Source: Candidatus Levyibacteriota bacterium
GTDB lineage: Bacteria > Patescibacteriota > Microgenomatia > Levybacterales > UBA12049
DNA length: 64,000 nt
Direction of reading: 5' to 3'
Assembly (NCBI GenBank): GCA_043807135.1
Contig: JAZDGF010000001.1
Span: 68,573 to 132,572 of the forward strand
Positions 15,860 through 45,917 of the stretch are shown piece by piece (the stretch's first letter is position 1; each line of letters begins with the position of its first letter). The notes under the pieces are model-generated. The model did no database searches, had not been told where the DNA came from, and saw nothing but the letters and a program-made list of their open reading frames with translations. The position numbers were made by a program, and so were the translations under genes.

Positions 15860-15892
15860 CAGAAAAACACGCGAAGGCGGGTTTTCTTATTA

Positions 15893-24722: not shown

Positions 24723-24727
24723 CAAAC

Positions 24728-24814
24728 GGTGGGATGCTGGAGCGGCTTAACAGGCTGGTTTCGAAAACCATGCGGGGCGAAAGTCCCACGGGGGTTCAAA
24801 TCCCTCTCCCACCG
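24728..24814 (+). tRNA. tRNA-Ser (anticodon CGA), type II
   Basis: GGTGGGATGCTGGAGCGGCTTAACAGGCTGGTTTCGAAAACCATGCGGGGCGAAAGTCCCACGGGGGTTCAAATCCCTCTCCCACCG. Acceptor GGTGGGA/TCCCACC, loop TTCGAAA, long variable arm. 5 nt downstream of the preceding tRNA. Confidence 0.8.
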
Positions 24815-24826
24815 CAATCTTTAGTT

Positions 24827-25254: not shown

Positions 25255-25341
25255 GGAGGGATCGCATAGTGGCCTAGTGCGCGCGCTTGGAAAGCGCGTA
25301 TGCCCGTAAGGGTATCGCGGGTTCAAATCCCGCTCCCTCCG
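25255..25341 (+). tRNA. tRNA-Ser (anticodon GGA), type II
   Basis: GGAGGGATCGCATAGTGGCCTAGTGCGCGCGCTTGGAAAGCGCGTATGCCCGTAAGGGTATCGCGGGTTCAAATCCCGCTCCCTCCG. Acceptor GGAGGGA/TCCCTCC, anticodon stem CGCGC/GCGCG, loop TTGGAAA, long variable arm. Confidence 0.8.
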
Positions 25342-25381
25342 CAACTTGACACGGAATATAAAATAATTCAAACTATACTTA

Positions 25382-30080: not shown

Positions 30081-30154
30081 GGCAAGAGAATTTTAAAAGA
30101 ATATAATATCGATAGCTTGATATTAACCCGACAAAAAACTTACAATATATCTAC

Positions 30155-31484
30155 CATGGATCCTAAATACTTTGAATCCCTGTATCCTAATACATCGCGC
30201 TTTAAAGAAATTGAGGAAATTTTAAGCTTTGTTAAAAACGGAAACTCTTGCCAACTTATTTCCTTTCCAGGAACCGGAAGGTCTAATATCCTGCAGCTTC
30301 TTGCCTATAATAGAGGCGTTAGAGAGAAACATCTTGGTGAAAAACAAAAATATGTCCATTTTGTTTACATGAATTTTTCAGAGGTAAGAAATCGCACTCT
30401 TCATGATGTAAATAAATTTATCTTTCTTTCTCTTATTGATTCTTTAACTGAACGAGAATTTTTAGAAGAGCACAAAAAGCTTAATAGGATTTTTAAAGAA
30501 TATTCAAAAACAAATGACGAATTAATTTTTTTTCAAGGATTAAAAGAAGCTCTTAATTATTTATCTATTGAAAAAAAACTAACAATAGTTCTTCTTTTTG
30601 ATAGATTTGAAGAATATCTTCCCGTACTCACTGATGAATTTTTTGCAAATCTTAGAATTTTAAGAAATAAGGCAAAATATCGTTTTTCTGCAGTATTCAC
30701 GCTTAACCGTCCCCTTGAAGATTTATTAAAGCCAACACTTTTTAATCAATTCTATGAATTTTTAGCAGGACATCTTGTTTATGTTTCTTTGTATGACAAG
30801 CCGGGAATGGATTTTAGAATTTCTTACTTTGAAAAAAAATATCAAAGGTCATTAGATAAAAAAACTTTAACTATCATTTTTTCTCTTACCGCAGGTCACG
30901 GAAAATTAACTCGCATTGCCCTTGAAACAGTTTTTGAGCAAAATATAAAAACCTTAACAAAAGAGGAAATTTTGCAATTATTACTAGCCAAAAAAACTAT
31001 TACCAGAGCTCTTTTTGAAATTTATAGCTTTCTTTCCAAAGAGGAAATAGAAAGACTTAATAAAAAGAGTAATGATAGCTTTTTAGAAAACATTGGCTTA
31101 TTTAAAGACAATAAAATCACAATTCTTCTTTTTGAAAAATATTTAGAGTTAAAAAAAACTTTTATCTCTACTGAAGATGAAAAAGATAAAATATTTATTG
31201 ATCATGAAACAAATGAAATTAAAAAAGGAAAAGAAAATCTTTCCGATAAATTAACTTCTTCAGAGTTTAAACTTTTAAAATATCTGTTGCAAAATCCTGA
31301 AAGAGTTATTGAGAGAAATGAGATTATTGAAGCTGTTTGGCAAAATACTGCCTCTTTTGCCGGCGTTTCTGATCAAGCAGTTGATCAACTTGTTCTTAGA
31401 ATTCGTAAGAAAATTGAAGACAATCCAAACAACCCCAACTACCTTTTAACGATTAAGGGAAGAGGATTTAAATTTATTCTCTAA
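30155..31484 (+). CDS. P-loop NTPase domain fused to C-terminal OmpR/PhoB-type winged-helix DNA-binding domain (putative transcriptional regulator)
   Basis: N-terminal Walker-A-like FPGTGRSNILQLL plus hhhhD Walker-B-like IVLLFDRFEE. C-terminal trans_reg_C-like segment LTSSEFKLLKYLLQNPERVIERNEIIEAVWQ...AVDQLVLRIRKKIE...LLTIKGRGFKF. Probable start ATG 30155 (MDPKYFESL). Confidence 0.65.
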
Positions 31485-31535: not shown

Positions 31536-32150
31536 GTGAGAAAAATAATTATATCGTTGGGAATTTTTTATATATTTTCTTTCCAACTTCCTCCTTTACA
31601 TCTAATTCATGCTCTCTTACCAGACAACGCAATGTGTGACAAAGATGAAGAATGTGCTTCCGGTGCCTGTGTAAAATACACACTTCCCGGAGAAGGGAAA
31701 ATTCGCAATACAGAAAAGCGCTGCGGTCCAATAGAAGATAAGGAAGCTAAGAAAGTTATTAACCCCGATGGTACAAAAACAGATTTGGAAGATGAGAAAA
31801 AAGTAAAGCAAGAACCCCTGCGTAATTCTCCTTGTAAGCAAGTGGGGGGTAAAGACAACGCTTATTTTAATTGTGATACTGGTTTAGGAATAACAATTAG
31901 TTCAAACCCAAAAGATTTTGTTAAAACTCTGTTTGGTGTAATTTTAAGTATCTCTGGAATGATAGCTCTCCTGCTTATAATATTTTCAGGGTATAGACTA
32001 ATCACCTCTCGGGGAAATCCAGAAAAAATTACAGATGCAAAAGACAGACTTACTTCTGCAGTTATCGGGCTCTTGTTTGTTATCTTTTCACTTGTTATAT
32101 TGCAAATTATAGGAGTTGATATTTTACATATTCCCGGATTAACAGAATGA
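31536..32150 (+). CDS. pilin-like protein (VirB2/TrbC-like candidate) with Cys-rich N-terminal domain
   Basis: Signal peptide, Cys-rich ~100-aa domain, then two hydrophobic helices flanking YRLITSRGNPEKITDAKDRLTSAV. This is a hairpin-TM topology shared with the next three genes. Confidence 0.5.
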   Translation: MRKIIISLGIFYIFSFQLPPLHLIHALLPDNAMCDKDEECASGACVKYTLPGEGKIRNTEKRCGPIEDKEAKKVINPDGTKTDLEDEKKVKQEPLRNSPCKQVGGKDNAYFNCDTGLGITISSNPKDFVKTLFGVILSISGMIALLLIIFSGYRLITSRGNPEKITDAKDRLTSAVIGLLFVIFSLVILQIIGVDILHIPGLTE

Positions 32151-32458
32151 AAGAATTAGTTCTTAAAATTAATGGGCAAGAAGTTCAAGCGCCTGAAGGA
32201 GTTCCAGTAGGAGGAGCTGATACAGGAAGTCAAATAATTTCCTTGAGCGTAACAGTTCTTTTTATAGTAGCAATTTTGCTTGCTCTTATATTTTTAATTT
32301 GGGGAGGAATTGATTGGACTACGTCTCAAGGAGATAAGAATAAAGTTCATGCAGCAAGAGAAAAGATAGTATATTCTATTATCGGACTTAGTGTAGTTTT
32401 ACTATCTTTTTTTATTGTTTCTCTAGTATCTGGTATTTTAGGAGTGAAACTTTTTTAA
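32147..32458 (+). CDS. pilin-like protein paralog (VirB2/TrbC-like candidate)
   Basis: TM - LIWGGIDWTTSQGDKNKVHAAREKI - TM. Shares the motif 'GG(I/V)xW(T/I)xSQGDK(N/S)KV..AR' with the 32518 paralog. 4-nt overlap with the upstream gene. Confidence 0.5.
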   Translation: MKELVLKINGQEVQAPEGVPVGGADTGSQIISLSVTVLFIVAILLALIFLIWGGIDWTTSQGDKNKVHAAREKIVYSIIGLSVVLLSFFIVSLVSGILGVKLF

Positions 32459-32517: not shown

Positions 32518-32934
32518 ATGAAAAAATTATTTGCCATCCCCACTTCAGTTGCTCTCTATCTTACTAACGCTCCTTTAGCTTTTGCACAAGGAACACCAAT
32601 TGATCCCTGCGCAGCATCAGACAGTAAATTCAATGTTCTTTGCGAGCTAAATGCTGGACAGTTTGGTAAGCTTGTTGGAACTGCTATTACTGCCGTTTTT
32701 GTAATTGCTGTTATTATCGCTCTTATTTATTTAATTTACGGCGGTGTTCGCTGGATAATGTCCCAGGGAGATAAAAGCAAAGTCCAAGAAGCAAGAAGTC
32801 ATATTATAGCTGCTGTTTTAGGATTAATAATTGTTTTCCTTGCCTACTTTATAATAAATATTATTCTCGGGGTGTTCCTAGGAATAAGTATTGATCAAAT
32901 AGAACTTCCTAACCTCAAGGACGCAATAAAATAA
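32518..32934 (+). CDS. pilin-like protein paralog (VirB2/TrbC-like candidate)
   Basis: Signal peptide (AFAQG), Cys pair, TM - LIYGGVRWIMSQGDKSKVQEARSHI - TM. Confidence 0.5.
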   Translation: MKKLFAIPTSVALYLTNAPLAFAQGTPIDPCAASDSKFNVLCELNAGQFGKLVGTAITAVFVIAVIIALIYLIYGGVRWIMSQGDKSKVQEARSHIIAAVLGLIIVFLAYFIINIILGVFLGISIDQIELPNLKDAIK

Positions 32935-32996: not shown

Positions 32997-33332
32997 TATT
33001 CCAAAAGGAGACCTATAGGAGGAGATTGGGGGGATTGTGTTCAGGAGGGAGTAGCAACTCTTTCTTGCATTCCTGTTGTTTTAGCAAGTGTTGTTAACTG
33101 GGCTTTAATATTTGCAGGCGTAGTTGCTTTAGTAATTGTAATTTTGTCTGGGATTAAATTTATAACCTCTAAGGGAGACAAAAAACAAGTTGCAAGTGCT
33201 AAGAGTAGTTTATCCTATGCAATACTAGGGTTAATTTTAATCTTTCTTTCCTTTTTTATAATAAGACTTATTGGTTATATTACAGGAGTTGATTGTATAA
33301 ACACTTTTGGCTTTAATAATTGTACTAGTTAA
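32997..33332 (+). CDS. pilin-like paralog, possibly pseudogene or non-canonical start
   Basis: The frame is open from 32997 and encodes ...GDWGDCVQEGVATLSCIPVVLASVVNWALIFAGVVALVIVILSGIKFITSKGDKKQVASAKSSLSYAILGLILIFLSFFII..., the same TM-motif-TM layout. There is no in-frame ATG; the ORF track starts it at TTG 33144, which lies inside TM1. A G6 homopolymer tract at 33028-33033 sits after an AGGAGG at 33018-33023. Confidence 0.35.
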   Translation, partial: YSKRRPIGGDWGDCVQEGVATLSCIPVVLASVVNWALIFAGVVALVIVILSGIKFITSKGDKKQVASAKSSLSYAILGLILIFLSFFIIRLIGYITGVDCINTFGFNNCTS

Positions 33333-34369
33333 TTATTTGCTCCTGCTTTTGCAACTCCTTGAGTAACAACTATAGACAAAAGAAATAATCCCGCAATTAA
33401 AAAAAGTATGTTTTTCCCATATTTTTTTTCTAGATCATCCGCTTCTTTATCCCCCATCACAATACCTATCATCTCCGTTGCATCTTCCTCGCTTAGTTCT
33501 TTCCCAAGAATAGCGTCAACAACCCCTTTATATTTTTCAGGATCGTTATTCTGAAAAAAATTCTCGAAATCAAAATTGCCATCCAATATTGCTTTTTTTT
33601 GGACATCATTCAACGGAGCATCTTTTAACCCTTCGCTTATTAGCTCTTTTCCTTTATTTACCTTTTCTTGGTCAATTTCACTTAAAAATTTATCCACATC
33701 TATTCCTAACTCTTTTAATCCTTGAAGGGCTAATTGCCCATGGTATTCACCTCTTTCCCCCTCAGCCTTTTTTGCACAAAATATTTTCGACAATTGCATC
33801 CTTTCCAATGAAGTATCTTCGCTTTTATCTTCTTTCTCTTTTATTTTCTCTCTCAAAGAAACTTCCTGACTATTAAAAAGATCATTTATAGTTTCCGGAG
33901 GACTTTCTATCTCTGTTGCAGATTCTTCTGGAAACTCAAAAGCATATATCCCTTTTTCTTTAAGAATAGCCTTATCCCCAGGAGTTACTTTATCAAGTTC
34001 TTTTTTCCACTCATTTAGAGAATAACTTTTACCGTCTAATTCAACTTTAATATTTTCAGATATCTCATCTAATGTTCCCTTCGCTTCTTCATCATCATAA
34101 AGATCTTCTAATGCCTCTACGTTAGCTCGTAATGCTTTTGAATTTTCTTCTACTCCTTTGCTCGCATCATATGTAAGAGCAAGCTCTCCTTTTTCTTTAT
34201 CAAGTTCCCCTCTATCTATTTTCTTACGAATTATTACTTCTGAGGCGCCAAAAAACTGTTGAGCTCTTTCTTTCCCTTTTTCTCTTAAACCCTCTCCTTT
34301 TGGAACTACACTCTTTTCAGGAATTTTAACTTCTGGAACTGGTGGTCCTTCTGCTGCTCCTTCACTCAT
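33329..34369 (-). CDS. acidic coiled-coil protein with C-terminal transmembrane anchor (tail-anchored)
   Basis: 346 aa, E/K-rich, predicted coiled coils, single C-terminal TM (ILFLIAGLFLLSIVVTQGVA). No catalytic motifs. Confidence 0.5.
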   Translation of the reverse strand: MSEGAAEGPPVPEVKIPEKSVVPKGEGLREKGKERAQQFFGASEVIIRKKIDRGELDKEKGELALTYDASKGVEENSKALRANVEALEDLYDDEEAKGTLDEISENIKVELDGKSYSLNEWKKELDKVTPGDKAILKEKGIYAFEFPEESATEIESPPETINDLFNSQEVSLREKIKEKEDKSEDTSLERMQLSKIFCAKKAEGERGEYHGQLALQGLKELGIDVDKFLSEIDQEKVNKGKELISEGLKDAPLNDVQKKAILDGNFDFENFFQNNDPEKYKGVVDAILGKELSEEDATEMIGIVMGDKEADDLEKKYGKNILFLIAGLFLLSIVVTQGVAKAGANN

Positions 34370-34423: not shown

Positions 34424-34759
34424 ATGTCCACTGGCAAAGCAGAAGCATTAGCAGCACAAATTAATCCTGAAGACAGGCCTATTGCAGTACGTGAATATCC
34501 AAAAGAAACCCCTGCTCCCAAGATTGAGATACCAACTCAAGCCCAGTCATCAGAACCAGTTAAGGCATCTGATATTAGAGAAGGTATGGTTAAAGGAGAT
34601 AAAGAAATAGAATTTAGCAAACATGCACAAAAGTTAGAGGCAGCAGATACTGATGCAAAAATTGAAGAAGTAAAAAGAGAACTAGAAGAACATTCTATAA
34701 GTCATAATCCTGTTTCTGGAGAAACTTCTTCTGATAATAATCCTTCTTTTTCCGAATAG
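34424..34759 (+). CDS. small acidic hypothetical protein
   Basis: 111-aa ORF, E/K/S-rich, no motifs; located within the T4SS-like block. Confidence 0.35.
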   Translation: MSTGKAEALAAQINPEDRPIAVREYPKETPAPKIEIPTQAQSSEPVKASDIREGMVKGDKEIEFSKHAQKLEAADTDAKIEEVKRELEEHSISHNPVSGETSSDNNPSFSE

Positions 34760-34856: not shown

Positions 34857-36098
34857 ATGGAAAATCATCCAATTCCTCAAGATATTACCGGCTTTCAGTT
34901 TAAGCTTATAGGGAATATGACTGTTAGGCAATTTGCTTATCTTGCAGCAGGAATTATTATTGCATGGATTTTTTATATTCTTCCTCTTTATATTTTAATT
35001 AAACTCCCCTTTTCTTTAATATTTGGTTTATCCGGAGTTGCGTTTGCTTTTTTACCAATTGAGGGAAGGCCAATGGATCTTATGATTAATAATTTTGTAA
35101 AAGCTTTATTTAATCCAACTCAATTTATATATGCTAAAACAGGCGGACATTTTTATTCCCCTACTCATGTCCCAGTCCCTCACATAGCAGCCCAAAAACA
35201 AACTGCATCTTCATTATCAGGTGATAATTTAAAAAAATTCTTAGATAATCTTCCTAAAAGACCTCAAAATAAACTAGATGAGAAAGAAATGGTTTTTTTT
35301 CAATCTCTTACAAATATTTCAAACCCTACAGCTTCCCCTACAGCATCAATTATACCAACCTATACAGCTCCACATATTTTTTCAGCTGCCCCTGTTAGAG
35401 CAAGTGATCTTAAAAAGCTAGAACCTGAAAAAGAAAAAAAGCCAGAGCCTATTGATTCTCAGGAAGAAGAAAATCAAAATATTCTTCTAGGTAAAGCGTC
35501 TGTTTTAGAACAAGAGCTTCAAAAAGCAAAACAAGAAGAAATGAAAAAAACTCAAGGCTCTGCTGATTATAATGCAGCTCATCAAAAAGTACTTGAACTT
35601 GAAACTCTTTTAAATGAAACTGTAGCTCAAAAACAAGGACTTGAAAACAAAATTCTATCACTTCAAAAAAAGCTTGATATGCAGGGGAAAAAAGTTTATT
35701 CCCCTTCTTTAGCAGTCCCTGAAAAAGAACCTACTAAGAATATTCGAAGTATTCCAAAAGGCATGGGTAAAAGCATTGGTATTCCAAATGCTCCCGAATA
35801 TCCAAATCTAGTTACTGGAATTATTAAAGATCCAAGATCAAATCCTTTACCAAATATTTTAGTTGAAATAAAAGATTATGAAGGAAATCCAGTTCGGGCT
35901 TTTAAAACAAATGCCTTAGGTCAATTTGCATCGGCAACCCCTCTTGTTAACGGAACGTATACAATTGAATTTGAAGATCCTAATGGACAAAACAAGTTTG
36001 ATATTATACAGTTTAGTGTCAAAGGGGAAATAATACTTCCTGTTGAAGTTATTTCCGTTGATACAAGAGAAGAATTAAGGAGGACTCTTTTTAACTAA
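34857..36098 (+). CDS. membrane protein with PrgI/VirB3-like N-terminal two-TM module, coiled-coil region and C-terminal beta-sandwich (carboxypeptidase-regulatory-like) domain
   Basis: N-terminus ITGFQFKLIGNMTVRQFAYLAAGIIIAWIFYIL...LIFGLSGVAFAFLPIEGRPMDLMINNFVKA resembles PrgI/VirB3-family proteins that precede VirB4 in Gram-positive T4SS. C-terminus GIIKDPRSNPLPNILVEIKDYEGNPVRAFKTNALGQFAS...GTYTIEFE resembles a CarbopepD_reg/transthyretin-like fold. Confidence 0.45.
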   Translation: MENHPIPQDITGFQFKLIGNMTVRQFAYLAAGIIIAWIFYILPLYILIKLPFSLIFGLSGVAFAFLPIEGRPMDLMINNFVKALFNPTQFIYAKTGGHFYSPTHVPVPHIAAQKQTASSLSGDNLKKFLDNLPKRPQNKLDEKEMVFFQSLTNISNPTASPTASIIPTYTAPHIFSAAPVRASDLKKLEPEKEKKPEPIDSQEEENQNILLGKASVLEQELQKAKQEEMKKTQGSADYNAAHQKVLELETLLNETVAQKQGLENKILSLQKKLDMQGKKVYSPSLAVPEKEPTKNIRSIPKGMGKSIGIPNAPEYPNLVTGIIKDPRSNPLPNILVEIKDYEGNPVRAFKTNALGQFASATPLVNGTYTIEFEDPNGQNKFDIIQFSVKGEIILPVEVISVDTREELRRTLFN

Positions 36099-36100
36099 AT

Positions 36101-36766
36101 ATGAGTAAAGCTGCCCAAAGAATTCATGCAACAACTCAAAAATTTACAGAGATTGAAGAAATCTCTGAAGACATTGTCATTTTTCAAGGCGGAAATGCTA
36201 CTTTAGTAATTGAAGTAACCGCAACAAATTTTGCTCTTCTTTCAAGAGAGGAACAAGATACTAAAATCTATTCTTACGCAGCGCTTCTAAATTCACTTTC
36301 TTTTGCAATTCAAATAATTGTTAGAAGTAAAAAATTAGACATTACAGCATATTTAAAACTGCTCGATTCTCAAGCAAAGGCAACCCAGAATGAACTTCTC
36401 AAAAATCAAATAAGCTTGTATCGAGATTTTGTCCAGGAATTAGTTAAGGTAAATACCGTACTTGATAAAAAATTTTATATTTGTATTCCCTACTCTTATC
36501 TTGAAAAAGGAGTTGGTGCTACCGCAAGTTCGGTAAGCAAGGGCGGGCCAAAAGACAATTTTACAGAACAAGCAAAAGCTGCGCTTCATTCAAAAGCAGA
36601 AAGTATCTTGTCTCAAGTTGCAAGATTAAATCTTAGAGCAAAAGTTTTGGAAAAAGAAGAGCTTGTAAAGCTTTACTATGAAACTTACAACGATCAATCA
36701 ATTGAAACAAATCAAATAACAGATAATGTTAGAACACCAATTGTCAGAGGAGAGGAGAAAAAATAA
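36101..36766 (+). CDS. hypothetical soluble protein directly preceding virB4-like gene
   Basis: 221-aa ORF with no TM or motifs; its stop overlaps the VirB4-like start (ATAATG) suggesting translational coupling. Confidence 0.45.
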   Translation: MSKAAQRIHATTQKFTEIEEISEDIVIFQGGNATLVIEVTATNFALLSREEQDTKIYSYAALLNSLSFAIQIIVRSKKLDITAYLKLLDSQAKATQNELLKNQISLYRDFVQELVKVNTVLDKKFYICIPYSYLEKGVGATASSVSKGGPKDNFTEQAKAALHSKAESILSQVARLNLRAKVLEKEELVKLYYETYNDQSIETNQITDNVRTPIVRGEEKK

Positions 36767-38757
36767 TGTTTTTTGGAAAAAAGAAAAAAGATAACAAACA
36801 AACAATAGCACCTACTCAAAAAACGCCGACCTCAAAAGAGTTAGCAAAGGTGGAAAAAGGTATGGTTTCTTTATCAGATGTAATTGCACCTTCTTCTGTT
36901 GAAGTGGACTTTCATTATGTTCGAGTAGGAGAAAGGTATTACAAAACATTTTTTGTTGTTGGCTATCCACGCTATGTCTCCCCAAATTGGCTACAGCCTT
37001 TAATTGATTTTGATCATTCAATGAATGTGTCCATGTTTGCCTATCCCACCTCTTCTCCGGATGTTCTATCTGACTTAAGAAGAAAAATTGCTGAGATGGA
37101 AGCAACAATTTCTTCTCAGATTGAAGAAGGAAAAGTTGTTGATGCAAAAGTAAGAGCATCTCTTGATGATGCCCTGTCAATTCAAGAACAATTAGCAAAG
37201 GGGGTTGAGCGGTTTTTTCAATTCAGCTTATACATTACCCTTATCTCAGATCATCCAAAAGAACTTGAAGAGGCATCAAAAAGACTTTCGTCTACTCTTG
37301 GTTCAATCATGATGATTGCCAAAACTGCAACCCTACAAATGGAAGACGGATTTAAATCAAGTATTCCTATGGGTCAAGATAAATTATTTATTACCAGAAA
37401 CATGGATACAACTTCTCTTGCTTCTACATTTCCTTTTACATCAGCAACTCTTGCTCAGGAAAAAGGAGTTATGTATGGAATAAATGAGCAAAATGGATCC
37501 CTTGTTATCTTTGATCGCTTTTCCCTTGAAAATGCCAATGAGGTTGTTTTGGGAAAGTCAGGATCAGGAAAATCATACTTAATAAAGCTTGAGGTTTTAA
37601 GACAATTCATGTTTGGAACCGAAGTTATTATTATTGACCCTGAAGGAGAGTATGGACAAATTGCAAAAACTATGGGAGGAGAAGAAGTTGCCTTTACTCC
37701 TTCTAATCCAATTAAAATAAATCCGTTTGATTTATCAGGGCTTTACGAGGAAGGTGAAAATGAGCTTGGTCTTAAAATTCTTTCCTTGCATGGACTTTTA
37801 AGAATCGTTATGGGAGATTTGGATGCTGCCCATGACGCAATTTTAGATCGAGCACTGGTTGAAACCTACAGACAAAAAGGAATAACTACTGATCCGGCAA
37901 CACAGAAAAAAACTCCTCCTTTAATGGAAGATCTTTATAAAGTTTTATTGGGAATGGAAGATTCGCAAGCAGGAGAACTTGCGCTTCGCCTTGAAAAGTT
38001 TATTAAAGGAAGCTTGAACGGCATTTTTAATCAACAATCAAACTTTGATATAAAAAACGCTTTAACAATCTTTAATATTAAAGCCTTAGAGGAAGAACTA
38101 AGACCAGTTGCAATGCATATTATTCTTGATTTTGTTTGGACTAGGGTTAGAAAAACCCTTAAGAAGAGACTTTTAATACTAGATGAAGCTTGGTATATTA
38201 TGAAATATCCTGATTCAGCTTCCTTTGTATATGGGATTGCCAAAAGATCAAGAAAATACTATCTTGCCTTAACAACCGCAACCCAGGATGCTCAGGACTT
38301 CTTATCAACTGATTATGGAAGGGCAATTCTTTCCAACTCCTCTATCCAGATGCTTTTAAAACAAAGCCCAACGGAAATTGATTTGATCTCAAAAGTTTTC
38401 TATCTTTCCGAAGGAGAAAAAGAGCTACTTCTTTCAGCAGACATTGGAGAGGGGTTATTTTTTGCCGGACAAAGTCATGTTGCCATGAAGGTAATTGCAG
38501 CACCTTTTGAGCACACTTTAATTACGTCTAATCCTCAAGAAATTTTAAACATAAGGGAACAAGAGGAAACGGAAATAAAAGCTCAGGAAACAACTCAAGA
38601 TATGCCAATACAGCCAATTGCTCCTCCTATAGATCAAAAACCACAACCGCCATTGGAAGATAACATTTCAGAAACAAAACCACCTACTCCGGTAAATCTA
38701 GAGAGTGCCCCTCCAATAAATGATGCTCAAAGCACAATTCCGAATTCAAATACATAA
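36766..38757 (+). CDS. virB4: VirB4/TraE/PrgJ-family type IV secretion ATPase
   Basis: Walker A VLGKSGSGKSY, Walker B RLLILDEAWYIM, VirB4-like N-terminal membrane-associated domain, ~660 aa like Gram-positive VirB4 homologues (TcpF/PrgJ/TrsE). Confidence 0.85.
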   Translation: MFFGKKKKDNKQTIAPTQKTPTSKELAKVEKGMVSLSDVIAPSSVEVDFHYVRVGERYYKTFFVVGYPRYVSPNWLQPLIDFDHSMNVSMFAYPTSSPDVLSDLRRKIAEMEATISSQIEEGKVVDAKVRASLDDALSIQEQLAKGVERFFQFSLYITLISDHPKELEEASKRLSSTLGSIMMIAKTATLQMEDGFKSSIPMGQDKLFITRNMDTTSLASTFPFTSATLAQEKGVMYGINEQNGSLVIFDRFSLENANEVVLGKSGSGKSYLIKLEVLRQFMFGTEVIIIDPEGEYGQIAKTMGGEEVAFTPSNPIKINPFDLSGLYEEGENELGLKILSLHGLLRIVMGDLDAAHDAILDRALVETYRQKGITTDPATQKKTPPLMEDLYKVLLGMEDSQAGELALRLEKFIKGSLNGIFNQQSNFDIKNALTIFNIKALEEELRPVAMHIILDFVWTRVRKTLKKRLLILDEAWYIMKYPDSASFVYGIAKRSRKYYLALTTATQDAQDFLSTDYGRAILSNSSIQMLLKQSPTEIDLISKVFYLSEGEKELLLSADIGEGLFFAGQSHVAMKVIAAPFEHTLITSNPQEILNIREQEETEIKAQETTQDMPIQPIAPPIDQKPQPPLEDNISETKPPTPVNLESAPPINDAQSTIPNSNT

Positions 38758-38764: not shown

Positions 38765-41700
38765 ATGAATGGAAACAATAATCCTCTAGCAAAAATTTTA
38801 GCAATTTTAATTACCACTTATCCCGATCACGCCGAAGAGTTAGGAAGAATAACAAATCTTTTTCTAAAAGATCCTGAGAAGGCAAAGCTTGAATTATATA
38901 AATGGGAAAAATCTTCTAACATAAAACTTCCTGATCATATAACGCTTTTGATAGAACAAGAGTTACAACAGGGAAAAGAAGTCTCCTCTCGGGACAATAA
39001 TGAAAATCAAAAAAAGAAGAACAGCAAGGATTCAAAAAATCAACCATACAATGACGGTGCTTATATAGCTAAAGACCCAACCCCTGCAGAAAGATATAGA
39101 AAGGCCATAGTAAATAAATTTATTAGAAAACAATCAAATGAAAGAACAAGCAAAGATTACCTTGAAGAAAAAACGGTCTCTGAAAAAGATGTTTTTGACA
39201 AATGGTACGAGGAGAATACAAGGCTTGGAAAAACAAAATTTTCCGAAGAAGAAGTTAAGGCATATAAAGAAAGTGAAGAGTTTAAAAAAAAATTAATTTC
39301 AATAGTAGATGAAAAATATAAAAAAAAATTCGAAGGAGAAATTGCAGCATTTATCATTGCTGAAAAATCTAGGATATATGAAAATCCAAATGAAGATCCT
39401 GTAATAAAAGAGTATAAAAAAATTCTAGCAGAAGCTAATAAAAAATCTCCTGAAGAAGCAGAAAAAATAAAAAAAGAAGCCTCAAAAATCCTTCATGAAG
39501 AATTTACTCAAAAAACACTTTCCTACTCTAAGGACCTCCCAGAAATAAAAGAATACTTAATTAAAGTAAATAAAGAAATCCTAGTAGCTCCTTCGATAAT
39601 CATGCCTTCTTCTGTGTTTGAAGAAGAATCTTATTCATCAGAACCATTTGAAAATGATAACAATAATGAAGAAGTTTTCCCTTATTTTCAGGGAAATCAA
39701 TCTGAGCCCGAAAATGAACCTGATAAATCTGGGAATCAATCCTCGTCAAACAGGCCCAGCAGACCCAACAGAAGAACAATTAGAGAAATTAATCCGGAAA
39801 AAAATGTTGCTAGAAGAGCGGCTGGAAGAACGAGGGGGAAAGGTCAAAAAGCGCTTTTGCGATTTGGAAGAGTAGCTGTCCAAGTTGTTTCAAAAATCCC
39901 CCCGCATGTCTGGATTGTAATTATTGCACTTATTATTCTTGTTATTCTTATTTTTATGCTTTTTGGACTTTTCGACGATCCATTAGAAAACGGTGGTGTA
40001 TATAATATATCAAAATCTGCAGATAAAGAGGCTGTGGCCAATCCTCCTGACGATCTTAACTATCTTACGGCATTATCTACTCCTCAAGATATTACATACA
40101 CAATTACTGTTTCTTATTCTGGAAAAGCCCAATCTGTTACGGTTACAGATCCCATTCCAGAAAACGCAATCTTAGTTTCTGCTGATAACGATGCTGAGTT
40201 TTTAGATGAAAATGGCAATATAATAACTGATAAAAACCTTGCAAGAACAGTTACTTGGACTATCACTCCTGAAGCATCATCAGGAGGAAATCTGTCTAAT
40301 CCAGCTAATACGACATTGGGAGATTGGTTAAATAAAAAGCTTTCAGAAAATCCACTTCGCTTAGGGCTAAGCGGCATGGGACCAACGATTGCAAATTTAT
40401 CAGCAAAATACAATGTCCCAATTGAGCTCGCGCTGGGACAATTTGCCTTAGAAACCCAATGGTATTCAGATAAAGGAGTTACTGTTACCCAAGGATCAAA
40501 TAATCCAGGCAATATTTTATGCAATCCTGATCTTAGGCTTGGAGCAATTGGAAATGATATTGTTGACCGCCTGGGAACCCATTATTGTAGATTTTCCTCT
40601 CTTGAGAGCGGACTTGAAGCATATTTTAAACATTTAGATAGTTCTACTTATCGAAGTGCAGTTGATGAGTTTATTAAAACAAGCAATCCTAGACCCGTTA
40701 TCCATATTTACTATTCATCTTCAAATGACCCAAGTAGCGGAAACGAAAACAGCTATGTAAATACTGTAAACAATATTACAAAAGATTTAAGAGACGCTGC
40801 TGTAATAGATGGTGTAAATCTTGCTGTTTCCTCTTCTTTCAATGAGCAGTATAATAACGCTACTTCTAGTTTTACCCTAGCTTTAAGACCCAAACCTGGT
40901 GCGAAAGATACATATATTATTAACCAGGCATTTGCAAGTGGAGCTGGAATATCAATATGCACAGGAGGATCAACAGTTGTTCTTGACCCCGGACATCCAA
41001 GCGAAGTTGGTATTGGAGGGGCGGGAAATGGAGTTAATGAAGTTGAAAAAGTCTTAGAGATTGCAAATATTATAAAACCAAAGTTAGAAGCAAAAGGATA
41101 CAGTGTTATCTTAACCAGAAATAATAATACAACTAGGGTTACAAATAAAGCGAGGGCGGAAACCGCAAATAGTGCAAATGCTTCTTTAATGTTCAGAATT
41201 CATACTGACGCTGGAAGAACTGACAGGGGAGTTGCGTATTATTATCCAGCAGAACAAGGAACAGTTGATGGAGTTACAGGCCCAAGCAGTGAAGTTATTG
41301 AAAAAAGCAAACAAGCAGCGACTGCCATCCTGAACACAACCAGGGATACTCTCATTGGAAACGATATGCCACTTTTTAGAGGAGGCCTTCTAACTGATGC
41401 TGATACTGCGGTAGGAAAGAAAAATGGGGGAGCTTTAGCGGGGTCTATTTATTCATCGGTTCCAACTGTGCTTGTGGAACTGGGAAGCCTCACCAACGCT
41501 ACCGATGCCACCTGGCTTAAATCAACTGATAATTTAAATAAATATGCTGATTCATTAGCGTCTGGAATTTCCAATTTTGCAGGGACCTCTACCTGCGCCG
41601 ATTCTAATAACGATTTTCCCACTAATTATGTTGGCACTGGAGGGTATACTCCTCTTCAGGGTCAATGGGAAGGAACTACTCAAAAGCTTACTGACTATCT

Positions 41701-42145
41701 TCTTGCAAATAACCCTTCTCCCAAATTTACTGTTTCAACATTAACTCTTGCGGGATATTATATAAAATATGCTGCAGAAGTAAATCTTCGAGCAGACATT
41801 CTTTGGGCACAAATGATTCATGAAACAGGTTTTGGAAAATATGGAGGAGATGTTTTGCCAAGCCAAAATAACTTTGCTGGTGTTGGAGCAACCGGAAATG
41901 GAGAAGAAGGAATATCGTTTGTCACCGCAGAAGCTGGTGTAAAAGCACAAATTGCCCACATGGCAGCTTACGTATACACAACTGATATTACTTCATGGAC
42001 TAATTCCCAAACAGATCCCCGCTATGACTTAATAATCCCCAGAGGAATCGCAAAGTCCTTAAATAATCTTGACGGAAGATGGGCTATTCCCGGAAACGGA
42101 TATGGAACAACTATTGAAAATTATGTAAGAATTATTAATCAATAA
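38765..42145 (+). CDS. membrane-anchored multidomain peptidoglycan hydrolase (glucosaminidase-like + Amidase_3 + glucosaminidase-like); T4SS-associated lytic enzyme candidate
   Basis: K/E-rich ~370-aa N-region, single TM (VWIVIIALIILVILIFMLF). Glucosaminidase-like segment (LGQFALETQWYSDKG...NNPGNI). Amidase_3 motifs (VVLDPGHPSEVGIGGAGNG...LTRNN...ANSANASLMFRIHTDAG...PTVLVELGSLTN). Second glucosaminidase-like segment (ADILWAQMIHETGFGKYGG...NNFAGVGATG). Confidence 0.75.
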   Translation: MNGNNNPLAKILAILITTYPDHAEELGRITNLFLKDPEKAKLELYKWEKSSNIKLPDHITLLIEQELQQGKEVSSRDNNENQKKKNSKDSKNQPYNDGAYIAKDPTPAERYRKAIVNKFIRKQSNERTSKDYLEEKTVSEKDVFDKWYEENTRLGKTKFSEEEVKAYKESEEFKKKLISIVDEKYKKKFEGEIAAFIIAEKSRIYENPNEDPVIKEYKKILAEANKKSPEEAEKIKKEASKILHEEFTQKTLSYSKDLPEIKEYLIKVNKEILVAPSIIMPSSVFEEESYSSEPFENDNNNEEVFPYFQGNQSEPENEPDKSGNQSSSNRPSRPNRRTIREINPEKNVARRAAGRTRGKGQKALLRFGRVAVQVVSKIPPHVWIVIIALIILVILIFMLFGLFDDPLENGGVYNISKSADKEAVANPPDDLNYLTALSTPQDITYTITVSYSGKAQSVTVTDPIPENAILVSADNDAEFLDENGNIITDKNLARTVTWTITPEASSGGNLSNPANTTLGDWLNKKLSENPLRLGLSGMGPTIANLSAKYNVPIELALGQFALETQWYSDKGVTVTQGSNNPGNILCNPDLRLGAIGNDIVDRLGTHYCRFSSLESGLEAYFKHLDSSTYRSAVDEFIKTSNPRPVIHIYYSSSNDPSSGNENSYVNTVNNITKDLRDAAVIDGVNLAVSSSFNEQYNNATSSFTLALRPKPGAKDTYIINQAFASGAGISICTGGSTVVLDPGHPSEVGIGGAGNGVNEVEKVLEIANIIKPKLEAKGYSVILTRNNNTTRVTNKARAETANSANASLMFRIHTDAGRTDRGVAYYYPAEQGTVDGVTGPSSEVIEKSKQAATAILNTTRDTLIGNDMPLFRGGLLTDADTAVGKKNGGALAGSIYSSVPTVLVELGSLTNATDATWLKSTDNLNKYADSLASGISNFAGTSTCADSNNDFPTNYVGTGGYTPLQGQWEGTTQKLTDYLLANNPSPKFTVSTLTLAGYYIKYAAEVNLRADILWAQMIHETGFGKYGGDVLPSQNNFAGVGATGNGEEGISFVTAEAGVKAQIAHMAAYVYTTDITSWTNSQTDPRYDLIIPRGIAKSLNNLDGRWAIPGNGYGTTIENYVRIINQ

Positions 42146-42184
42146 TGTTGTCTATGTTTTTTATCTTTGTTATTCTAAATATTA

Positions 42185-42841
42185 ATGTTTAAAAAAACAC
42201 TTTTGCTATTTTTTTCACTAACAGTTATTTTTATTGTGTTTAAAAATAACGCCCTATTCTATGGAGGGGATTCTTATGCCGCAACTAACCAGGGCTCTCA
42301 AACAGCAAGTGAATGTGTAATCGTTAAGGTAGGAAATCCAACAGCAGATCCTGACACTTCAAAATGCAACACCTTTTTGGGCACTGCTTCAAGTTATGCT
42401 CTAAAAGCTATTGAGCTCGCGAGAAGCCAAAAAGGGAAAATGTATTTATGGGCTGCTTGTCATGGTGATTTATCAAAAAGCCCACCCCCCGGGGGATGTG
42501 CAAATTATGATTGTTCGGGTCTTACAAGATGGACTTGGTATTGGGCAACTGATGGAAAAGTCAACGATCTTGACCAAACGGCTACTAACTGGGATGCGGG
42601 ATATGGTAATTTTGAGAAGTTTGACAAGAGTCAGGTTGCCCTTATTCAACCAGGAGATCTTGTTTATTTTGGGCCATCAAAAGCCGACGCATCCCATACA
42701 GGAATCTACGCTGGCCTAGGTGACTGTGGCGCAAACGACTGCTTTATTCATGCTCCTGGAACAGGAAAAGCTGTTACAGAATATAGTTTATCTAAAAGAA
42801 CAAATTTTATTGGTTTTCTTAGGCCTATTGTTGTAGAATAA
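42185..42841 (+). CDS. secreted NlpC/P60-family peptidoglycan endopeptidase
   Basis: Signal peptide; catalytic Cys region KMYLWAACHG...GGCANYDCSGLTRWTW and His region HTGIYAGLG...FIHAP, consistent with NlpC/P60 (Cys-His-His). Confidence 0.75.
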   Translation: MFKKTLLLFFSLTVIFIVFKNNALFYGGDSYAATNQGSQTASECVIVKVGNPTADPDTSKCNTFLGTASSYALKAIELARSQKGKMYLWAACHGDLSKSPPPGGCANYDCSGLTRWTWYWATDGKVNDLDQTATNWDAGYGNFEKFDKSQVALIQPGDLVYFGPSKADASHTGIYAGLGDCGANDCFIHAPGTGKAVTEYSLSKRTNFIGFLRPIVVE

Positions 42842-42845: not shown

Positions 42846-43331
42846 ATGAATTTAACATCTTTCTTTCAAAACAAAAAATTTTTAATAGGTTCTCTTATTG
42901 CTCTTTTTTTTATCGTAGCTTTAATCGTTATTTTTGTCATTAGCAGTCTTTTTAAAACCGTCGATGAACAGCCCCTTATCAACACAGATGAATTCGTAAG
43001 CCCTACAACAATGCCTGTTATCACTACAAAAATTATTCAAAATATTGAAAAAGAAATTAGGGAAAATATAGAAGCTGCCATACCTAGTGAAAATATTAAT
43101 ATATATGAACCAAGGCTTTATGAAGATTGGGCAATTGTAACTATTGAACCAAAAGATCACATAACCGATGCTGCAAATCTACTTTTACATAAAGAGGAAA
43201 ATCAATGGAAAATAATCCTCGGACCGGGTACTTTTTTCGACGAAGAGTCACTGATTGAAGTAAGTGCCCCCATCTATCTTTTTGATGAGATAAACCGAAT
43301 GTCTATTCCTGCACCCGAATCGGCATTATAA
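42846..43331 (+). CDS. hypothetical membrane-anchored protein
   Basis: 161 aa, N-terminal TM (IGSLIALFFIVALIVIFVISSLF), no motifs. 3' end overlaps the dnaN 3' end (convergent) by ~29 nt. Confidence 0.45.
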   Translation: MNLTSFFQNKKFLIGSLIALFFIVALIVIFVISSLFKTVDEQPLINTDEFVSPTTMPVITTKIIQNIEKEIRENIEAAIPSENINIYEPRLYEDWAIVTIEPKDHITDAANLLLHKEENQWKIILGPGTFFDEESLIEVSAPIYLFDEINRMSIPAPESAL

Positions 43332-44412
43332 GATGTAGGAAGTTAGAATTTCCTTTAATTTTAAAAACTCCAGGGCTTAATGGGCCGCTCATTTCAAGAA
43401 TTAAATCTTCATCTTCTACGTTCCCTAAAAAATCTAGAAGGTATCTTGCATTAAAAGCTATCTCGTTTTCTTCTCCTTCTGTTTTTGCCTCAACCTCTAC
43501 CCTGTTTTCTCCAACAGAGGGGGTATTTGCTGAGACGATAATTTTATCTTCTTCAATCGAAAATTTAACAATGTTTGCAGTATCTCTTGCAAACACGGAG
43601 CAGATTTTGACAGCATTTAACATTTTTGCCTTTTCAAATAAAGATACTGTGGAAGAACTTGTTGGTAATATTTTTTCAAAAGCAGGATACTCTGCTTCTA
43701 TCAGCCTCCCCACAAGAATTGTTTCCCCTTGAGAAAAAATCACCTGGTTTGATTTATCAGAAACCAAAACAGAGACATAATCTCCCTCTTCTTTAATGGA
43801 AAAAAGTTCTCTTAAAACACGGGAGGGAATCAGCATTGAGACGGATTTCCCTTTTTTTCCTCCAGCTGAAAAAGCTCTTCTTAAAGAAAGTCTGTATCCA
43901 TCTGTTGCAACCATTGTAAAGTCTTTTGCGTCTTGGGTCATTAAAACGCCTGATAATGCCGGTCTTCCGCTATCTTGAGCTGCTGAAAAAACAATCTTTG
44001 AAAGCTCTTTCTCAACATCTGTTCTTAATATCCTTGCAACCTCTTCTCCTTTCCCCTCGTAGATGTTAGGGAAGTCTTCTGCTGGCATTGTTTGGAAAAT
44101 TGCTTCTACTTTCTCCCCTTTAAGCATTAAGTTTTGCTTTTCATAAGATAGTTCTATTTTTCCCTCCCCCATGTTTAAAAGCAGGTCTGAAAATGTCTTT
44201 GCTGGCACAGTTATGGCCCCCTCTTTTTCAATGCTTGCAGAAACGTGAGCTATTATTCCAATCTCTAGGTCTGTTGCGCTTATTTTAAGTCTCCCCTTTT
44301 TTGTTTCTATAAGAAAGTTTGAAAGAATAGGAAGCTGACTTCTTGTCGAAACAGCGTGGTTTAAAAATGATATTTTCTTTTGTAAATTTTCCGCTAAAAG
44401 TATTGCTTTCAT
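43303..44412 (-). CDS. dnaN: DNA polymerase III beta subunit (sliding clamp)
   Basis: MKAILLAENLQKKISFLNHAVSTRSQLPILSNFLIE...three-domain clamp, 369 aa, immediately downstream of dnaA. Confidence 0.9.
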   Translation of the reverse strand: MKAILLAENLQKKISFLNHAVSTRSQLPILSNFLIETKKGRLKISATDLEIGIIAHVSASIEKEGAITVPAKTFSDLLLNMGEGKIELSYEKQNLMLKGEKVEAIFQTMPAEDFPNIYEGKGEEVARILRTDVEKELSKIVFSAAQDSGRPALSGVLMTQDAKDFTMVATDGYRLSLRRAFSAGGKKGKSVSMLIPSRVLRELFSIKEEGDYVSVLVSDKSNQVIFSQGETILVGRLIEAEYPAFEKILPTSSSTVSLFEKAKMLNAVKICSVFARDTANIVKFSIEEDKIIVSANTPSVGENRVEVEAKTEGEENEIAFNARYLLDFLGNVEDEDLILEMSGPLSPGVFKIKGNSNFLHLIMPIRVQE

Positions 44413-44540
44413 AGTATGTTTATATTAATAGTTGTAGTAGTTTATATGGATAAGTGGAAAAAAGCAAGACTGTGTGGGTACAAAAATGTTGATAACATGT
44501 TGATAAAAAAGTGGAAGAAATGTTTATAAAAAAAGGGGGC
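44413..44540. promoter_or_regulatory. candidate oriC / DnaA-box cluster in dnaA-dnaN intergenic region
   Basis: AT-rich 128 bp with two TGTTGATAA (44487-44495, 44498-44506; 1 mismatch to the TGTGGATAA DnaA box), ATGGATAAG (44445-44453), and two AAGTGGAA[A/G]AAA repeats (44451-44462, 44509-44520). Confidence 0.5.
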
Positions 44541-45917
44541 CTAGTATTCCACACGTTTTTCACTATTTATTTTAGTTATTCTCATTATATCCTCACCAAT
44601 TTTAGTTTTTTTCATTAAAGCTTCTATTTTTTCCACACCATACATAATAGTTGTGTGATCCCTTCCCCCTAAAAGGTTGCCAATTTCAACAAGCGTGAGA
44701 TTTAATTCGGTTTTTAAAAGATACATTGCAACTTGCCTTGCCCTTACTAAAGAGGAATCTCTCTTTGCTCCTTTAATTTGAGTTTGTTTAATTCTATAAA
44801 AAGAGCAGACGTTTTTTATTATGTCATCTGGATGAAAAACGCTAGCATCTTCCCTTTTCTTGCTTTCTAAAATTTCGTCTAGGATATCATCAGTAAGCTC
44901 CCCGTTTGCTGTACTTGCCCTAGTGACAACTCTAAGTAAAACTCCCTCCAAGCTTCTTCCATCAAGATCTTGTTCAGCAATCCTTTTAGCTGCTTCCATA
45001 GATAGTTCAAAGTTATATTTTTTTGCTTTTATTAAAAGAATTGCAGTTTTTAACTCAAAATCAGGTGGTTCAATATCAACGGTTAGCCCCCCTGAAAATC
45101 TTGATAAAAGTCTTTTTTCAACCTTTTTCATTTCAGAAGGAGGTCTGTCTGAAGAAAGAACGATTTGAGATCCGTTATCAACAAGAATGTTAAAAGTATG
45201 GAAAAGTTCCTCCTGAATCTTTTCTTTACCAGCAATAAACTGGATATCATCGATTATTAAAAGGTCAAGCCCTCTAAATCTTTTCTTCATCAAAGAAGTT
45301 GCATTTGTTCTGATTGCTTCTACTACCTCATTTGTAAACTCCTCGCTTGTGATATAAGCAATTTTTTTTTCAGGATGTTTTGCATAAACATCATTTGCAA
45401 TCGCTTGCATTAAATGGGTTTTTCCTACTCCTACCGGTCCGTATATAAAAAGAGGGTTGTACGCTTTCCCAAGTTTTTTAGCAACTGTTGTTGCACTAAC
45501 ATAAGCAAGTTGATTACTTGAAGAAACCGCAAGATTTTCAAAAGTATATTCAGATCTTACTCTTGGCAGGTGTCCAAGCGTTTTTTTTGTCTTTTCGTTT
45601 ATTGAAAAAAGGGGGCCTGGGTCATTTGTTTTATCCTTAATAATAGTTTTTGGGACAAAAAGTAAATCAATATTTTTTTTAGTGTGTTTGTCAAGAGATT
45701 TTTTAATAATTTGATAAAACCTTCTTTGTAATAGGTCAATAATCATACTTGAAGGAGCAGCAACGGTTGCCGTAGTGTTATCCATTGTAAAAAGAATAGT
45801 TGGCTTAAAAAGTGTTAAAAAATTTGCACGAGAAACTTCAGTTTCAACTTCTCCCAAAACTATTTTCCACAACTGATCAAGATCTTTTTTTTCCATAAGC
45901 AGAATTAGCCACCCCAT
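44541..45917 (-). CDS. dnaA: chromosomal replication initiator DnaA
   Basis: AAA+ Walker A GPVGVGKTHL, Walker B LLIIDDIQF, C-terminal DNA-binding helix-turn-helix (RQVAMYLLK...TLVEIG...GGRDHTTIMYGVEKI). Confidence 0.93.
   Translation of the reverse strand: MGWLILLMEKKDLDQLWKIVLGEVETEVSRANFLTLFKPTILFTMDNTTATVAAPSSMIIDLLQRRFYQIIKKSLDKHTKKNIDLLFVPKTIIKDKTNDPGPLFSINEKTKKTLGHLPRVRSEYTFENLAVSSSNQLAYVSATTVAKKLGKAYNPLFIYGPVGVGKTHLMQAIANDVYAKHPEKKIAYITSEEFTNEVVEAIRTNATSLMKKRFRGLDLLIIDDIQFIAGKEKIQEELFHTFNILVDNGSQIVLSSDRPPSEMKKVEKRLLSRFSGGLTVDIEPPDFELKTAILLIKAKKYNFELSMEAAKRIAEQDLDGRSLEGVLLRVVTRASTANGELTDDILDEILESKKREDASVFHPDDIIKNVCSFYRIKQTQIKGAKRDSSLVRARQVAMYLLKTELNLTLVEIGNLLGGRDHTTIMYGVEKIEALMKKTKIGEDIMRITKINSEKRVEY

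Follow-up and report, generated by a model that had tools for sequence, protein, structure and literature searches.

A predicted membrane-anchored, multi-domain peptidoglycan hydrolase is encoded directly after virB4 in Levybacteria and probably serves a type IV secretion system

The hydrolase gene and its operon

The stretch of DNA studied here, referred to as the window throughout, comprises 64,000 nucleotides of contig JAZDGF010000001.1 from the assembly GCA_043807135.1 of a Candidatus Levyibacteriota bacterium. It contains the gene for a 1126-aa protein that combines an N-acetylmuramoyl-L-alanine amidase domain with two glucosaminidase-like domains and that is encoded directly 3' of a VirB4-like ATPase of type IV secretion systems (T4SS), on the side of dnaN and dnaA (Table 1). 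An earlier note on this DNA, made from the sequence alone, had described the protein as a triple peptidoglycan hydrolase with a K/E-rich region of 370 aa and one transmembrane helix, followed by the gene for an NlpC/P60 endopeptidase, and had likened the arrangement to the local wall opening by VirB1, PrgK and TcpG. The upstream neighbor was rightly taken for VirB4, as it scores well above the cut-off of the conju_CD1110 family; it also matches the Pfam entries P-loop_TraG, DUF87 and AAA_10.

Along the series prgI, trsD, virB4, hydrolase gene, nlpC and orf161 the genes are separated by 2, -1, 7, 39 and 4 nt, respectively. The PrgI-family protein carries a CarboxypepD_reg-like ectodomain, while the TrsD/TraC-like protein resembles the N-terminal part of VirB4 and has homologues with the PF26593 TraC-like domain. 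Upstream of these genes lies an array of VirB2-like pilin genes, which is conserved in this position in the related loci L002, L005 and L009 and in the locus encoding P0010 (L numbers denote related loci, P numbers members of the protein family described below). The genes dnaN and dnaA are convergent with the operon end, and the same neighborhood is found in nearly all related loci.

Chromosomal T4SS of Patescibacteria have been described by Quinonero-Coronel et al. 2025 (PMC12102498). They are characterized by a VirB4 clade related to MPF-FATA, by TrsD and PrgI next to VirB4, by pilin arrays, by a position near dnaA and by the lack of a relaxase. All of this is found in the window, where VirB4, TrsD and PrgI are encoded together, a VirB2-like pilin array is present, dnaA and dnaN are close by and the open reading frames (ORFs) scanned included neither a relaxase nor a coupling protein gene. 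We identify the cluster as such a published, chromosomal MPF-FATA-like T4SS. A mobile element of the integrative and conjugative type was considered and rejected, because the scanned ORFs of the window yielded no integrase, relaxase or coupling protein and because the position at the side of dnaA and dnaN is conserved across genomes.

Table 1 Features of the window and of related loci. Positions without a locus prefix refer to the window; AF2, AlphaFold model; pLDDT, predicted local distance difference test.
Feature	Position (nt)	Strand	Size or residues	Basis or remark
Two tandem class A penicillin-binding proteins, SpoIID-like protein nearby	1912-4194, 4287-6695, 10398-12149			
tmRNA	15498-15860			
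Four tRNA genes	19928-20015; 24650-24815; 25255-25342			
ORFs flanking the pilin array	25382-26983; 27051-30080 (-); 33329-34369 (-); 34424-34759			no Pfam match
Trans_reg_C protein	30117-31484		455 aa	C-terminal winged helix
Three VirB2-like T4SS pilin genes	31536-32150, 32147-32458, 32518-32934	+		PF18895 43.7, 34.9, 34.2 bits (cut-off 26.6)
PrgI-family (VirB3-like) membrane protein	34857-36098	+	413 aa	Pfam PrgI 38.4 bits (cut-off 27)
TrsD/TraC-like protein	36101-36766	+	221 aa	NCBIfam VirB4_plasma positions 102-233 and TrsD
VirB4-like T4SS ATPase	36766-38757	+	663 aa	NF045971 conju_CD1110, 391.9 bits (cut-off 325)
Large hydrolase gene	38765-42145	+	1126 aa	ATG start
Conserved all-helical domain, predicted cytoplasmic, K/E-rich	38765-39574	+	aa 1-270	AF2, conservation
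Disordered acidic/Ser-rich linker, basic juxtamembrane end	39575-39883	+	aa 271-373	pLDDT ~30
Single predicted transmembrane helix	39902-39970	+	aa 380-402	AF2 helix; hydropathy
DUF11-type beta-sandwich	40001-40279	+	aa 413-505	Pfam 29.3 bits scanned alone; AF2 strands
GH73-like glycosidase module 1	40301-40810	+	aa 513-682	catalytic E563; Pfam, Foldseek
Conserved beta-strands with motif L.LRPKP..KDTYI.NQA	40856-40966	+	aa 698-734	AF2 strands 698-709, 722-734
Amidase_3 (N-acetylmuramoyl-L-alanine amidase)	40976-41575	+	aa 738-937	H744/E759/H813 zinc ligands, E905 catalytic
Second GH73-like / TftA-C-terminal-like glycosidase domain	41681-42130	+	aa 973-1122	E1020; Pfam, NCBIfam
Putatively secreted accessory enzyme (nlpC)	42185-42841	+	218 aa	NlpC/P60 domain aa 84-204
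N-terminal module of the accessory enzyme	42185-42370	+	aa 1-61	motif SNC.V.KVG.P....C
orf161, small bitopic protein, last operon gene	42846-43331	+	161 aa	transmembrane helix 9-41
dnaN and dnaA (origin region)	43303-45917	-		Pfam DNA_pol3_beta x3, Bac_DnaA
Accessory enzymes with N-terminal module in related loci	L014:10100-10768; L016:9792-10544; L019:8724-9386; L002:13625-14389			
orf161 homologues	L010:7828-8331; L008:2398-2952; L012:3540-4034			sequence identity
Mosaic large hydrolase gene of L012	L012:4-2868			compared with 38765-42145

Enzyme domains and catalytic residues

The triple-hydrolase composition proposed earlier withstood comparison with Pfam, whose cut-offs are 27 bits for Amidase_3, 30.2 for Glucosaminidase, 23 for NLPC_P60 and 24.6 for DUF11. 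Amidase_3 (PF01520) scored 92.2 bits in the scan of the whole protein and 96.8 bits when the domain was scanned alone. Glucosaminidase (PF01832) matched the whole protein with 57.6 bits spread over two stretches; in separate scans, 37.7 bits were obtained for the C-terminal copy (aa ~998-1087) and 30.3 bits, barely above the cut-off, for the internal copy (aa ~541-674). The catalytic residues appear intact. H744, E759, H813 and E905 of the amidase align with the DPGH, E, H and E positions of 5emi (AmiC2-type), and the catalytic residues of this domain also align to 7agm. In the C-terminal glucosaminidase-like copy, E1020 within IHETGFG aligns with the IHETGNG sequence of 8yxk, and E563 of the internal copy is invariant in the eight homologues compared.

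The internal module was modelled with AlphaFold (predicted template modelling score 0.73). A Foldseek search with this model returned as best PDB matches almost only GH73 enzymes, namely Auto (3fi7), FlgJ (5dn4), the type VI secretion effector Tge2 (4kt3), AtlA, LytB and AtlE, with a probability of 0.99 for the top three, though with an E value of only 0.04. The profile of the module gave no match among PDB sequences, and hhalign placed it in register with the C-terminal copy, albeit weakly (E 0.049). The module was accepted, marginally, as a divergent GH73 domain.

The C-terminal domain matches positions 299-441 of the NCBIfam entry for TftA, the hormogonium tapered-terminus morphoprotein (NF050040), with an E value of 1.3e-26. 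However, an identity as TftA was rejected, because the whole protein attains 93.4 bits where 500 are required and only the C-terminal glycosidase-like domain of ~150 aa is held in common. With phage endolysins and with autolysins of Bacillales plasmids, the same domain shares 34-44% identity. Matches to plasmids did not extend beyond single enzyme cassettes, and the idea that the protein as a whole derives from a plasmid or phage was dismissed, as single cassettes alone match generic autolysins and endolysins (27-44% identity). An SLT domain, the criterion for VirB1, was not found by Pfam in the 1126-aa protein. The G+C content is 0.40-0.42 in the C-terminal cassettes and nlpC (40976-42841) versus 0.32 in the N-terminal domain (38765-39874) and about 0.33 in the window overall. 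We do not take this excess as evidence for transfer, since the N-terminal domain is rich in K and E, which accounts for much of the difference.

Predicted topology and scaffold architecture

An AlphaFold (AF2) model was calculated for aa 1-735 on the basis of an 18-sequence alignment. Helices are predicted at aa 6-72 and 102-270, with block-mean pLDDT values over the latter stretch of mostly 71-94. Within this N-terminal domain, Y132, W147 and Y254 are invariant and D211-P212 is nearly invariant (at least 90%) in 15 homologues. The first 370 aa of the protein do contain 27.6% K+E, as the earlier note had pointed out, but the region is not mere low complexity: a conserved helical domain is followed by about 100 disordered residues. 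This linker is poorly conserved and ends in a basic RRAAGRTRGKGQK stretch immediately before the transmembrane segment. The single transmembrane helix noticed earlier coincides with the sole hydrophobic segment of the protein (aa 374-408; hydropathy peak of 3.57 at aa 370-409). Since the basic stretch precedes this segment and acidic residues come after it, the N-terminus should reside in the cytoplasm and the C-terminus outside. Taken together, hydropathy, flanking charges and the AF2 model are consistent with a bitopic N-in/C-out protein.

One domain had escaped the earlier note, which listed Amidase_3 and the two glucosaminidase-like domains correctly. Behind the transmembrane helix a DUF11-type match at aa 440-518 appears in the whole-protein Pfam scan, and AF2 predicts a beta-sandwich at aa 413-500. 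No other part of the scaffold family is as conserved as this sandwich, in which K417, D462, P463, D481 and W498 are invariant and I464/P465 nearly invariant in the 15 homologues. The strands at aa 698-734 would complete the sandwich. Their junction motif occurs throughout the family and is found even in P0014, which lacks the internal module, and for this reason module 1 may be an insertion in the beta-sandwich.

A family of scaffold proteins linked to virB4

A profile of the scaffold (aa 1-735) plus three homologues, searched exhaustively against 1.84 billion representatives, matched only 267 proteins (E <= 1e-3). About 45 of these share a long N-terminus, a single transmembrane helix at aa 330-750 and a DUF11-like domain, and all the named ones are proteins from Levybacteria metagenome-assembled genomes that are annotated as 'hypothetical'. 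When 44 members were examined for Pfam content, Glucosaminidase was recognized in nine, Peptidase_M23 in six, Amidase_3 and Amidase_2 in five each, Peptidase_M15_4 in three, VanY and SLT in two each, and polysaccharide deacetylase and M74 in one each. An SLT-like motif (AIQES...GYTQIMP) is present in the C-terminal cassettes of P0003 and P0004. In the alignments the cassettes start after the junction motif, and two alternative types of internal module can be distinguished. Judged by their sequences, the scaffold proteins thus appear to form a small family with exchangeable hydrolase cassettes.

The association with virB4 extends well beyond the window. A locus scan with a 7-sequence alignment returned three genome loci and ten metagenome loci. 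Upstream DNA was available for 12 non-redundant loci (the window, the L002 group, L005, L006, L009/L019, L010/L013, the P0010 locus, L011, L014/L018, L016/L017, L020 and L021), and in every one of them the scaffold gene resides directly 3' of virB4, including cases where the encoded members are only ~20% identical. Gaps of 7-60 nt or overlaps separate the two genes. Where downstream DNA was available, it reaches dnaN and mostly also dnaA within a few genes.

This linkage bears on the simplest conceivable function, that of a housekeeping autolysin for growth or daughter-cell separation that happens to lie next to virB4 merely because both are close to the origin. Amidase_3, GH73 and NlpC/P60 are indeed classic domains of cell-separation enzymes, the cassettes are similar to Firmicutes autolysins and endolysins, and the annotation provided by NCBI is simply 'N-acetylmuramoyl-L-alanine amidase'. 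Nevertheless, we regard such a role as very improbable because the linkage to virB4 is strict and the family is rare and found only in the virB4 context. Furthermore, the same gene order is seen on the conjugative plasmid pCF10, and a change of catalytic type between close relatives would be unexpected in a division enzyme.

The composition of the family also allows the proposal that the protein is primarily a structural subunit, in which the cytoplasmic domain, the transmembrane helix and the sandwich fill a role of the VirB8/VirB10 type while the hydrolase cassettes are dispensable decorations. Sandwich and transmembrane helix constitute the conserved core, the enzymes vary or are unrecognizable in some members, P0008 stops right after the junction motif with module 1 as its only module, and homologues of VirB6 and VirB8 are scarce or absent in Microgenomatia (PMC12102498). 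On the other hand, most of the examined members carry at least one recognizable wall hydrolase, the catalytic residues are conserved and the fold search with the scaffold matched no T4SS component. A mainly structural function is therefore rated as quite unlikely.

The accessory enzyme and orf161

The gene following that of the large hydrolase does encode an NlpC/P60 protein, as stated in the earlier note. NLPC_P60 (PF00877) reached 38.4 bits, and the triad C110, H171 and H189 aligns with the catalytic domain of LytE (8i2d). Its designation as secreted is based only on an N-terminal hydrophobic segment. Across the loci, accessory enzymes keep this hydrophobic N-terminus together with a Cys motif (S42, C44, V49, G50 and C61 in the window protein). 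Their catalytic halves differ: NlpC/P60 is present in the window, L008, L010/L013 and L012, VanY in L014, an M74-like domain in L016 and C39_2 in L019. An Amidase_2 protein is encoded at the position of the accessory enzyme in L011. On sequence grounds, the accessory enzymes may be regarded as another modular family encoded at this locus.

Homologues of orf161 (31-36% identity) were detected only in the loci that carry NlpC/P60, i.e., L008, L010/L013 and L012. Both the NlpC/P60 enzyme and orf161 homologues were seen only where the large protein carries the Amidase_3 cassette, and other loci encode unrelated small bitopic proteins in the position of orf161. By position, orf161 corresponds to the VirB8-like PrgL of pCF10. 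A database search with orf161 matched only the protein itself, and its profile showed no similarity to PrgL. The protein could be a VirB8 analogue or else a regulator or inhibitor of the hydrolases.

Divergence and mosaicism

The components of the cluster differ markedly in their conservation. Compared with the window proteins, identities in the related loci are mostly 80-88% for VirB4, mostly 68-86% for TrsD, mostly 56-82% for PrgI and 65-81% for DnaA; the scaffold part of the hydrolase, with 37-48%, is the fastest-evolving part of the cluster. In L021, the most distant locus, identities fall to 69% for VirB4, 53% for TrsD and 44% for PrgI. The closest genome is that of L012, with DnaA and DnaN 81% identical to those of the window. 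Its hydrolase gene is nevertheless a mosaic, in which the Amidase_3+GH73 cassette is 79% identical to that of the window, the scaffold (aa 238-501) is 45% identical and module 1 is replaced. This mosaic suggests recombination within the gene. Two of the loci, L008 (CAYWVK010000002.1) and L009 (CAZKJM010000001.1), are titled 'uncultured Gammaproteobacteria', yet they contain the Levybacteria-type cluster, with a VirB4 identity to the window of 80% for L009 (L008 begins inside the hydrolase gene) and DnaA identities of 65-70% for both. The Gammaproteobacteria labels are probably wrong.

Rapid change and cassette exchange are compatible with an offensive function, which the earlier note had contemplated. 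At the point of contact, the hydrolases would then breach the wall of the host or of a partner cell and give the T4SS pilus or conduit access to the host membrane, a use that is compatible with a PrgK-like role. Along the same lines, the set of hydrolases together with the secreted partner might be a host-range determinant adapted to the chemistry of the host's wall. Cassettes on the scaffold have been exchanged among close relatives (GH73, Amidase_2/3, M23, M15/VanY, SLT, M74 and deacetylase), the secreted accessory enzyme has been exchanged as well (NlpC/P60, VanY, C39_2, Amidase_2 and M74-like), and both the low identity of the scaffold relative to VirB4 and DnaA and the L012 mosaic agree with such a scenario. 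In Saccharibacteria, moreover, T4SS and hydrolases are essential for epibiotic growth (PMC10633639). A host-range function would explain why hydrolases are essential for that mode of life and why, in a machine that is otherwise conserved, they are mosaic and evolve fastest. However, the N-terminal transmembrane helix and cytoplasmic domain are predicted to anchor the protein in the membrane of the producer, as in PrgK, which acts in the donor envelope (PMC11323569). In addition, Levybacteria have no known host, an immunity gene was not identified, and the hydrolases of Gram-positive conjugative elements normally show modular diversity as well. The bacterium also has a wall of its own to be opened, as two class A penicillin-binding proteins and a SpoIID-like protein encoded in the window imply that it makes peptidoglycan. 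The membrane anchor and the parallel with PrgK appear to favor action at the producer's own envelope. Attack on a foreign wall is accordingly judged rather unlikely, and the host-range proposal is comparably doubtful.

Comparison with known systems

The closest functional parallel is PrgK from the Enterococcus faecalis plasmid pCF10. There, the order of genes is prgI-prgJ (VirB4)-prgK-prgL, so that PrgK and the window protein each follow directly after a VirB4 of the CD1110 family, itself located after prgI, and each precede a small bitopic protein. The layout of the proteins is also alike. PrgK has a K-rich cytoplasmic N-terminus of 245 aa, a transmembrane segment at aa 246-277 and three hydrolase-type ectodomains (PMC11323569). 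These are LytM, SLT and CHAP in PrgK but GH73, Amidase_3 and GH73 in the window protein, which, unlike PrgK, also has a DUF11 beta-sandwich into which an enzyme module appears to be inserted. Together with TraG of pIP501, PrgK is assigned to the 'DELTA' class of T4SS peptidoglycan hydrolases. A further difference concerns the genetic context, as the window system is chromosomal and relaxase-less while PrgK is encoded on a conjugative plasmid.

TcpG and CwlT are two-domain enzymes encoded in T4SS loci that combine a glycan-cleaving domain, which in TcpG is a GH73/FlgJ-type glucosaminidase, with NlpC/P60. By description, the window system resembles them; however, its NlpC/P60 enzyme is a separate protein, and the large protein is longer and has an amidase and a cytoplasmic domain. 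TcpG (pCW3) and CwlT (ICEBs1) are both named as T4SS hydrolases (PMC11323569, PMC12102498). VirB1 of the Gram-negative MPF-T systems serves the same purpose of local wall opening but is a small, soluble, periplasmic lytic transglycosylase of the SLT type. Outside Paceibacteria, the association of VirB1 homologues with virB4 is poor, it has been suggested that 'other glycosidases' may fill this role, and in Microgenomatia the VirB1 hidden Markov models do not associate with virB4 (PMC12102498).

Among the Patescibacteria, Southlakia epibionticum ML1 offers a further comparison. Its genes for PrgI (0010), a TrsD-like protein (0009), VirB4 (0008), the proteins 0007 and 0006 and small exported proteins occur in this order, close to dnaN and dnaA. 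SEML1_0007 (1113 aa), whose C-terminal part has a DD-peptidase fold, is likened to the window protein by gene order and description. SEML1_0006 combines GH73 with phage-tail lysozyme and a Cys protease. The enzyme types of the two proteins differ from those in the window. Both genes were scored as essential for epibiotic growth by transposon sequencing (PMC10633639 supplement; PMC12102498; Wang et al. 2023), in the one genetically tractable lineage, where the T4SS itself is essential for this growth (PMC10633639).

Proposed function in the T4SS

We consider it likely that the 1126-aa protein is a PrgK-like wall-remodelling subunit of the origin-proximal T4SS in Levybacteria. This assignment is supported by the intact domains and catalytic residues, the predicted bitopic topology, the tight operon and the invariable position after virB4, by a VirB4 of the same CD1110 family as PrgJ of pCF10 along with the gene order and protein architecture shared with PrgK, and by the existence of a wall in the producer, the match to the published T4SS features and the essentiality of the genes after virB4 in S. 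epibionticum. The wall-opening idea advanced in the earlier note is in this sense strengthened, as it now draws on operon packing, synteny across the loci, the pCF10 gene order and the S. epibionticum data, although it continues to be a sequence-based proposal.

In such a scheme, the hydrolase would be co-transcribed with prgI, trsD and virB4 and would insert into the membrane in N-in/C-out orientation. The helical cytoplasmic domain on its long flexible linker would dock to the base of the machine, either in the cytoplasm or at the membrane, and the DUF11 beta-sandwich would form a stalk on the outer side of the membrane. From there, two GH73-type glycosidases and a MurNAc-L-Ala amidase would cut the producer's own peptidoglycan locally, while the co-encoded NlpC/P60 endopeptidase, if secreted, would cut stem peptides or cross-links. 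Acting together, the enzymes would perforate the wall and so allow the channel and a pilus of VirB2-like subunits to pass.

Several observations weigh against this assignment. No similarity to PrgK was found: BLASTP gave a best E value of 0.42, and hhalign with the 18-sequence profile a probability of 2.5%. The parallel with PrgK is therefore one of position and architecture and not of demonstrated homology. For the N-terminal domain, searches for Pfam, PDB-fold or PrgK similarity returned nothing, and because this domain matches nothing known, its docking to the T4SS is a conjecture. The fast evolution of the scaffold region and the swapping of hydrolase cassettes between relatives also count here, because neither would obviously be required for a self-directed housekeeping step, and several family members lack a hydrolase that Pfam recognizes. 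Finally, only one of the three predicted hydrolase domains of PrgK is active in vitro, the others regulating it (PMC11323569). For this reason we infer peptidoglycan cleavage by the intact-looking domains of the window proteins with caution, and the 'three to four' activities counted in the earlier note are to be read as an upper bound.

It is already known that T4SS employ multi-domain hydrolases, that Patescibacteria possess T4SS and that essential hydrolases are encoded downstream of virB4 in Saccharibacteria. A description of the Levybacteria scaffold family, of its cassette exchange and of the modularity of the partner enzymes was not found in the literature consulted, though the supplementary tables of PMC12102498 may hold an earlier partial listing. 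If the PrgK-like assignment is correct, the locus reveals what occupies the VirB1-type slot in Levybacteria, namely a tethered multi-enzyme protein that is missed by generic VirB1 profiles. E563, E1020, H744/E905 and C110 are concrete targets for mutation. A comparison of the cassette types with the chemistry of the organisms' own walls and of host walls would offer a handle on whether the machine opens the wall of the symbiont, that of the host, or both.

Further features of the window

Just upstream of the pilin array lies a gene for a 455-aa protein in which only a C-terminal winged-helix domain, Trans_reg_C, and no receiver domain was matched. The protein is conserved in this position in L005 (71% identity) and L009 (56%), and at the P0010 locus it was recognized by its Pfam match. 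It is possibly a dedicated regulator of the T4SS cluster. The array is also flanked by ORFs without Pfam match. One of them encodes a polytopic membrane protein of 533 aa that might represent the VirB6 'missing' from Microgenomatia, and another a 1009-aa protein on the opposite strand. The window as a whole has a G+C content of ~33% and contains, besides dnaA and dnaN, the genes yidC and leuS as well as genes for tmRNA, with the tag ADYSYSRGPKLAYAFA, and for tRNAs, three of them specific for Ser (anticodons UGA, CGA and GGA) and one for Arg (GCG).

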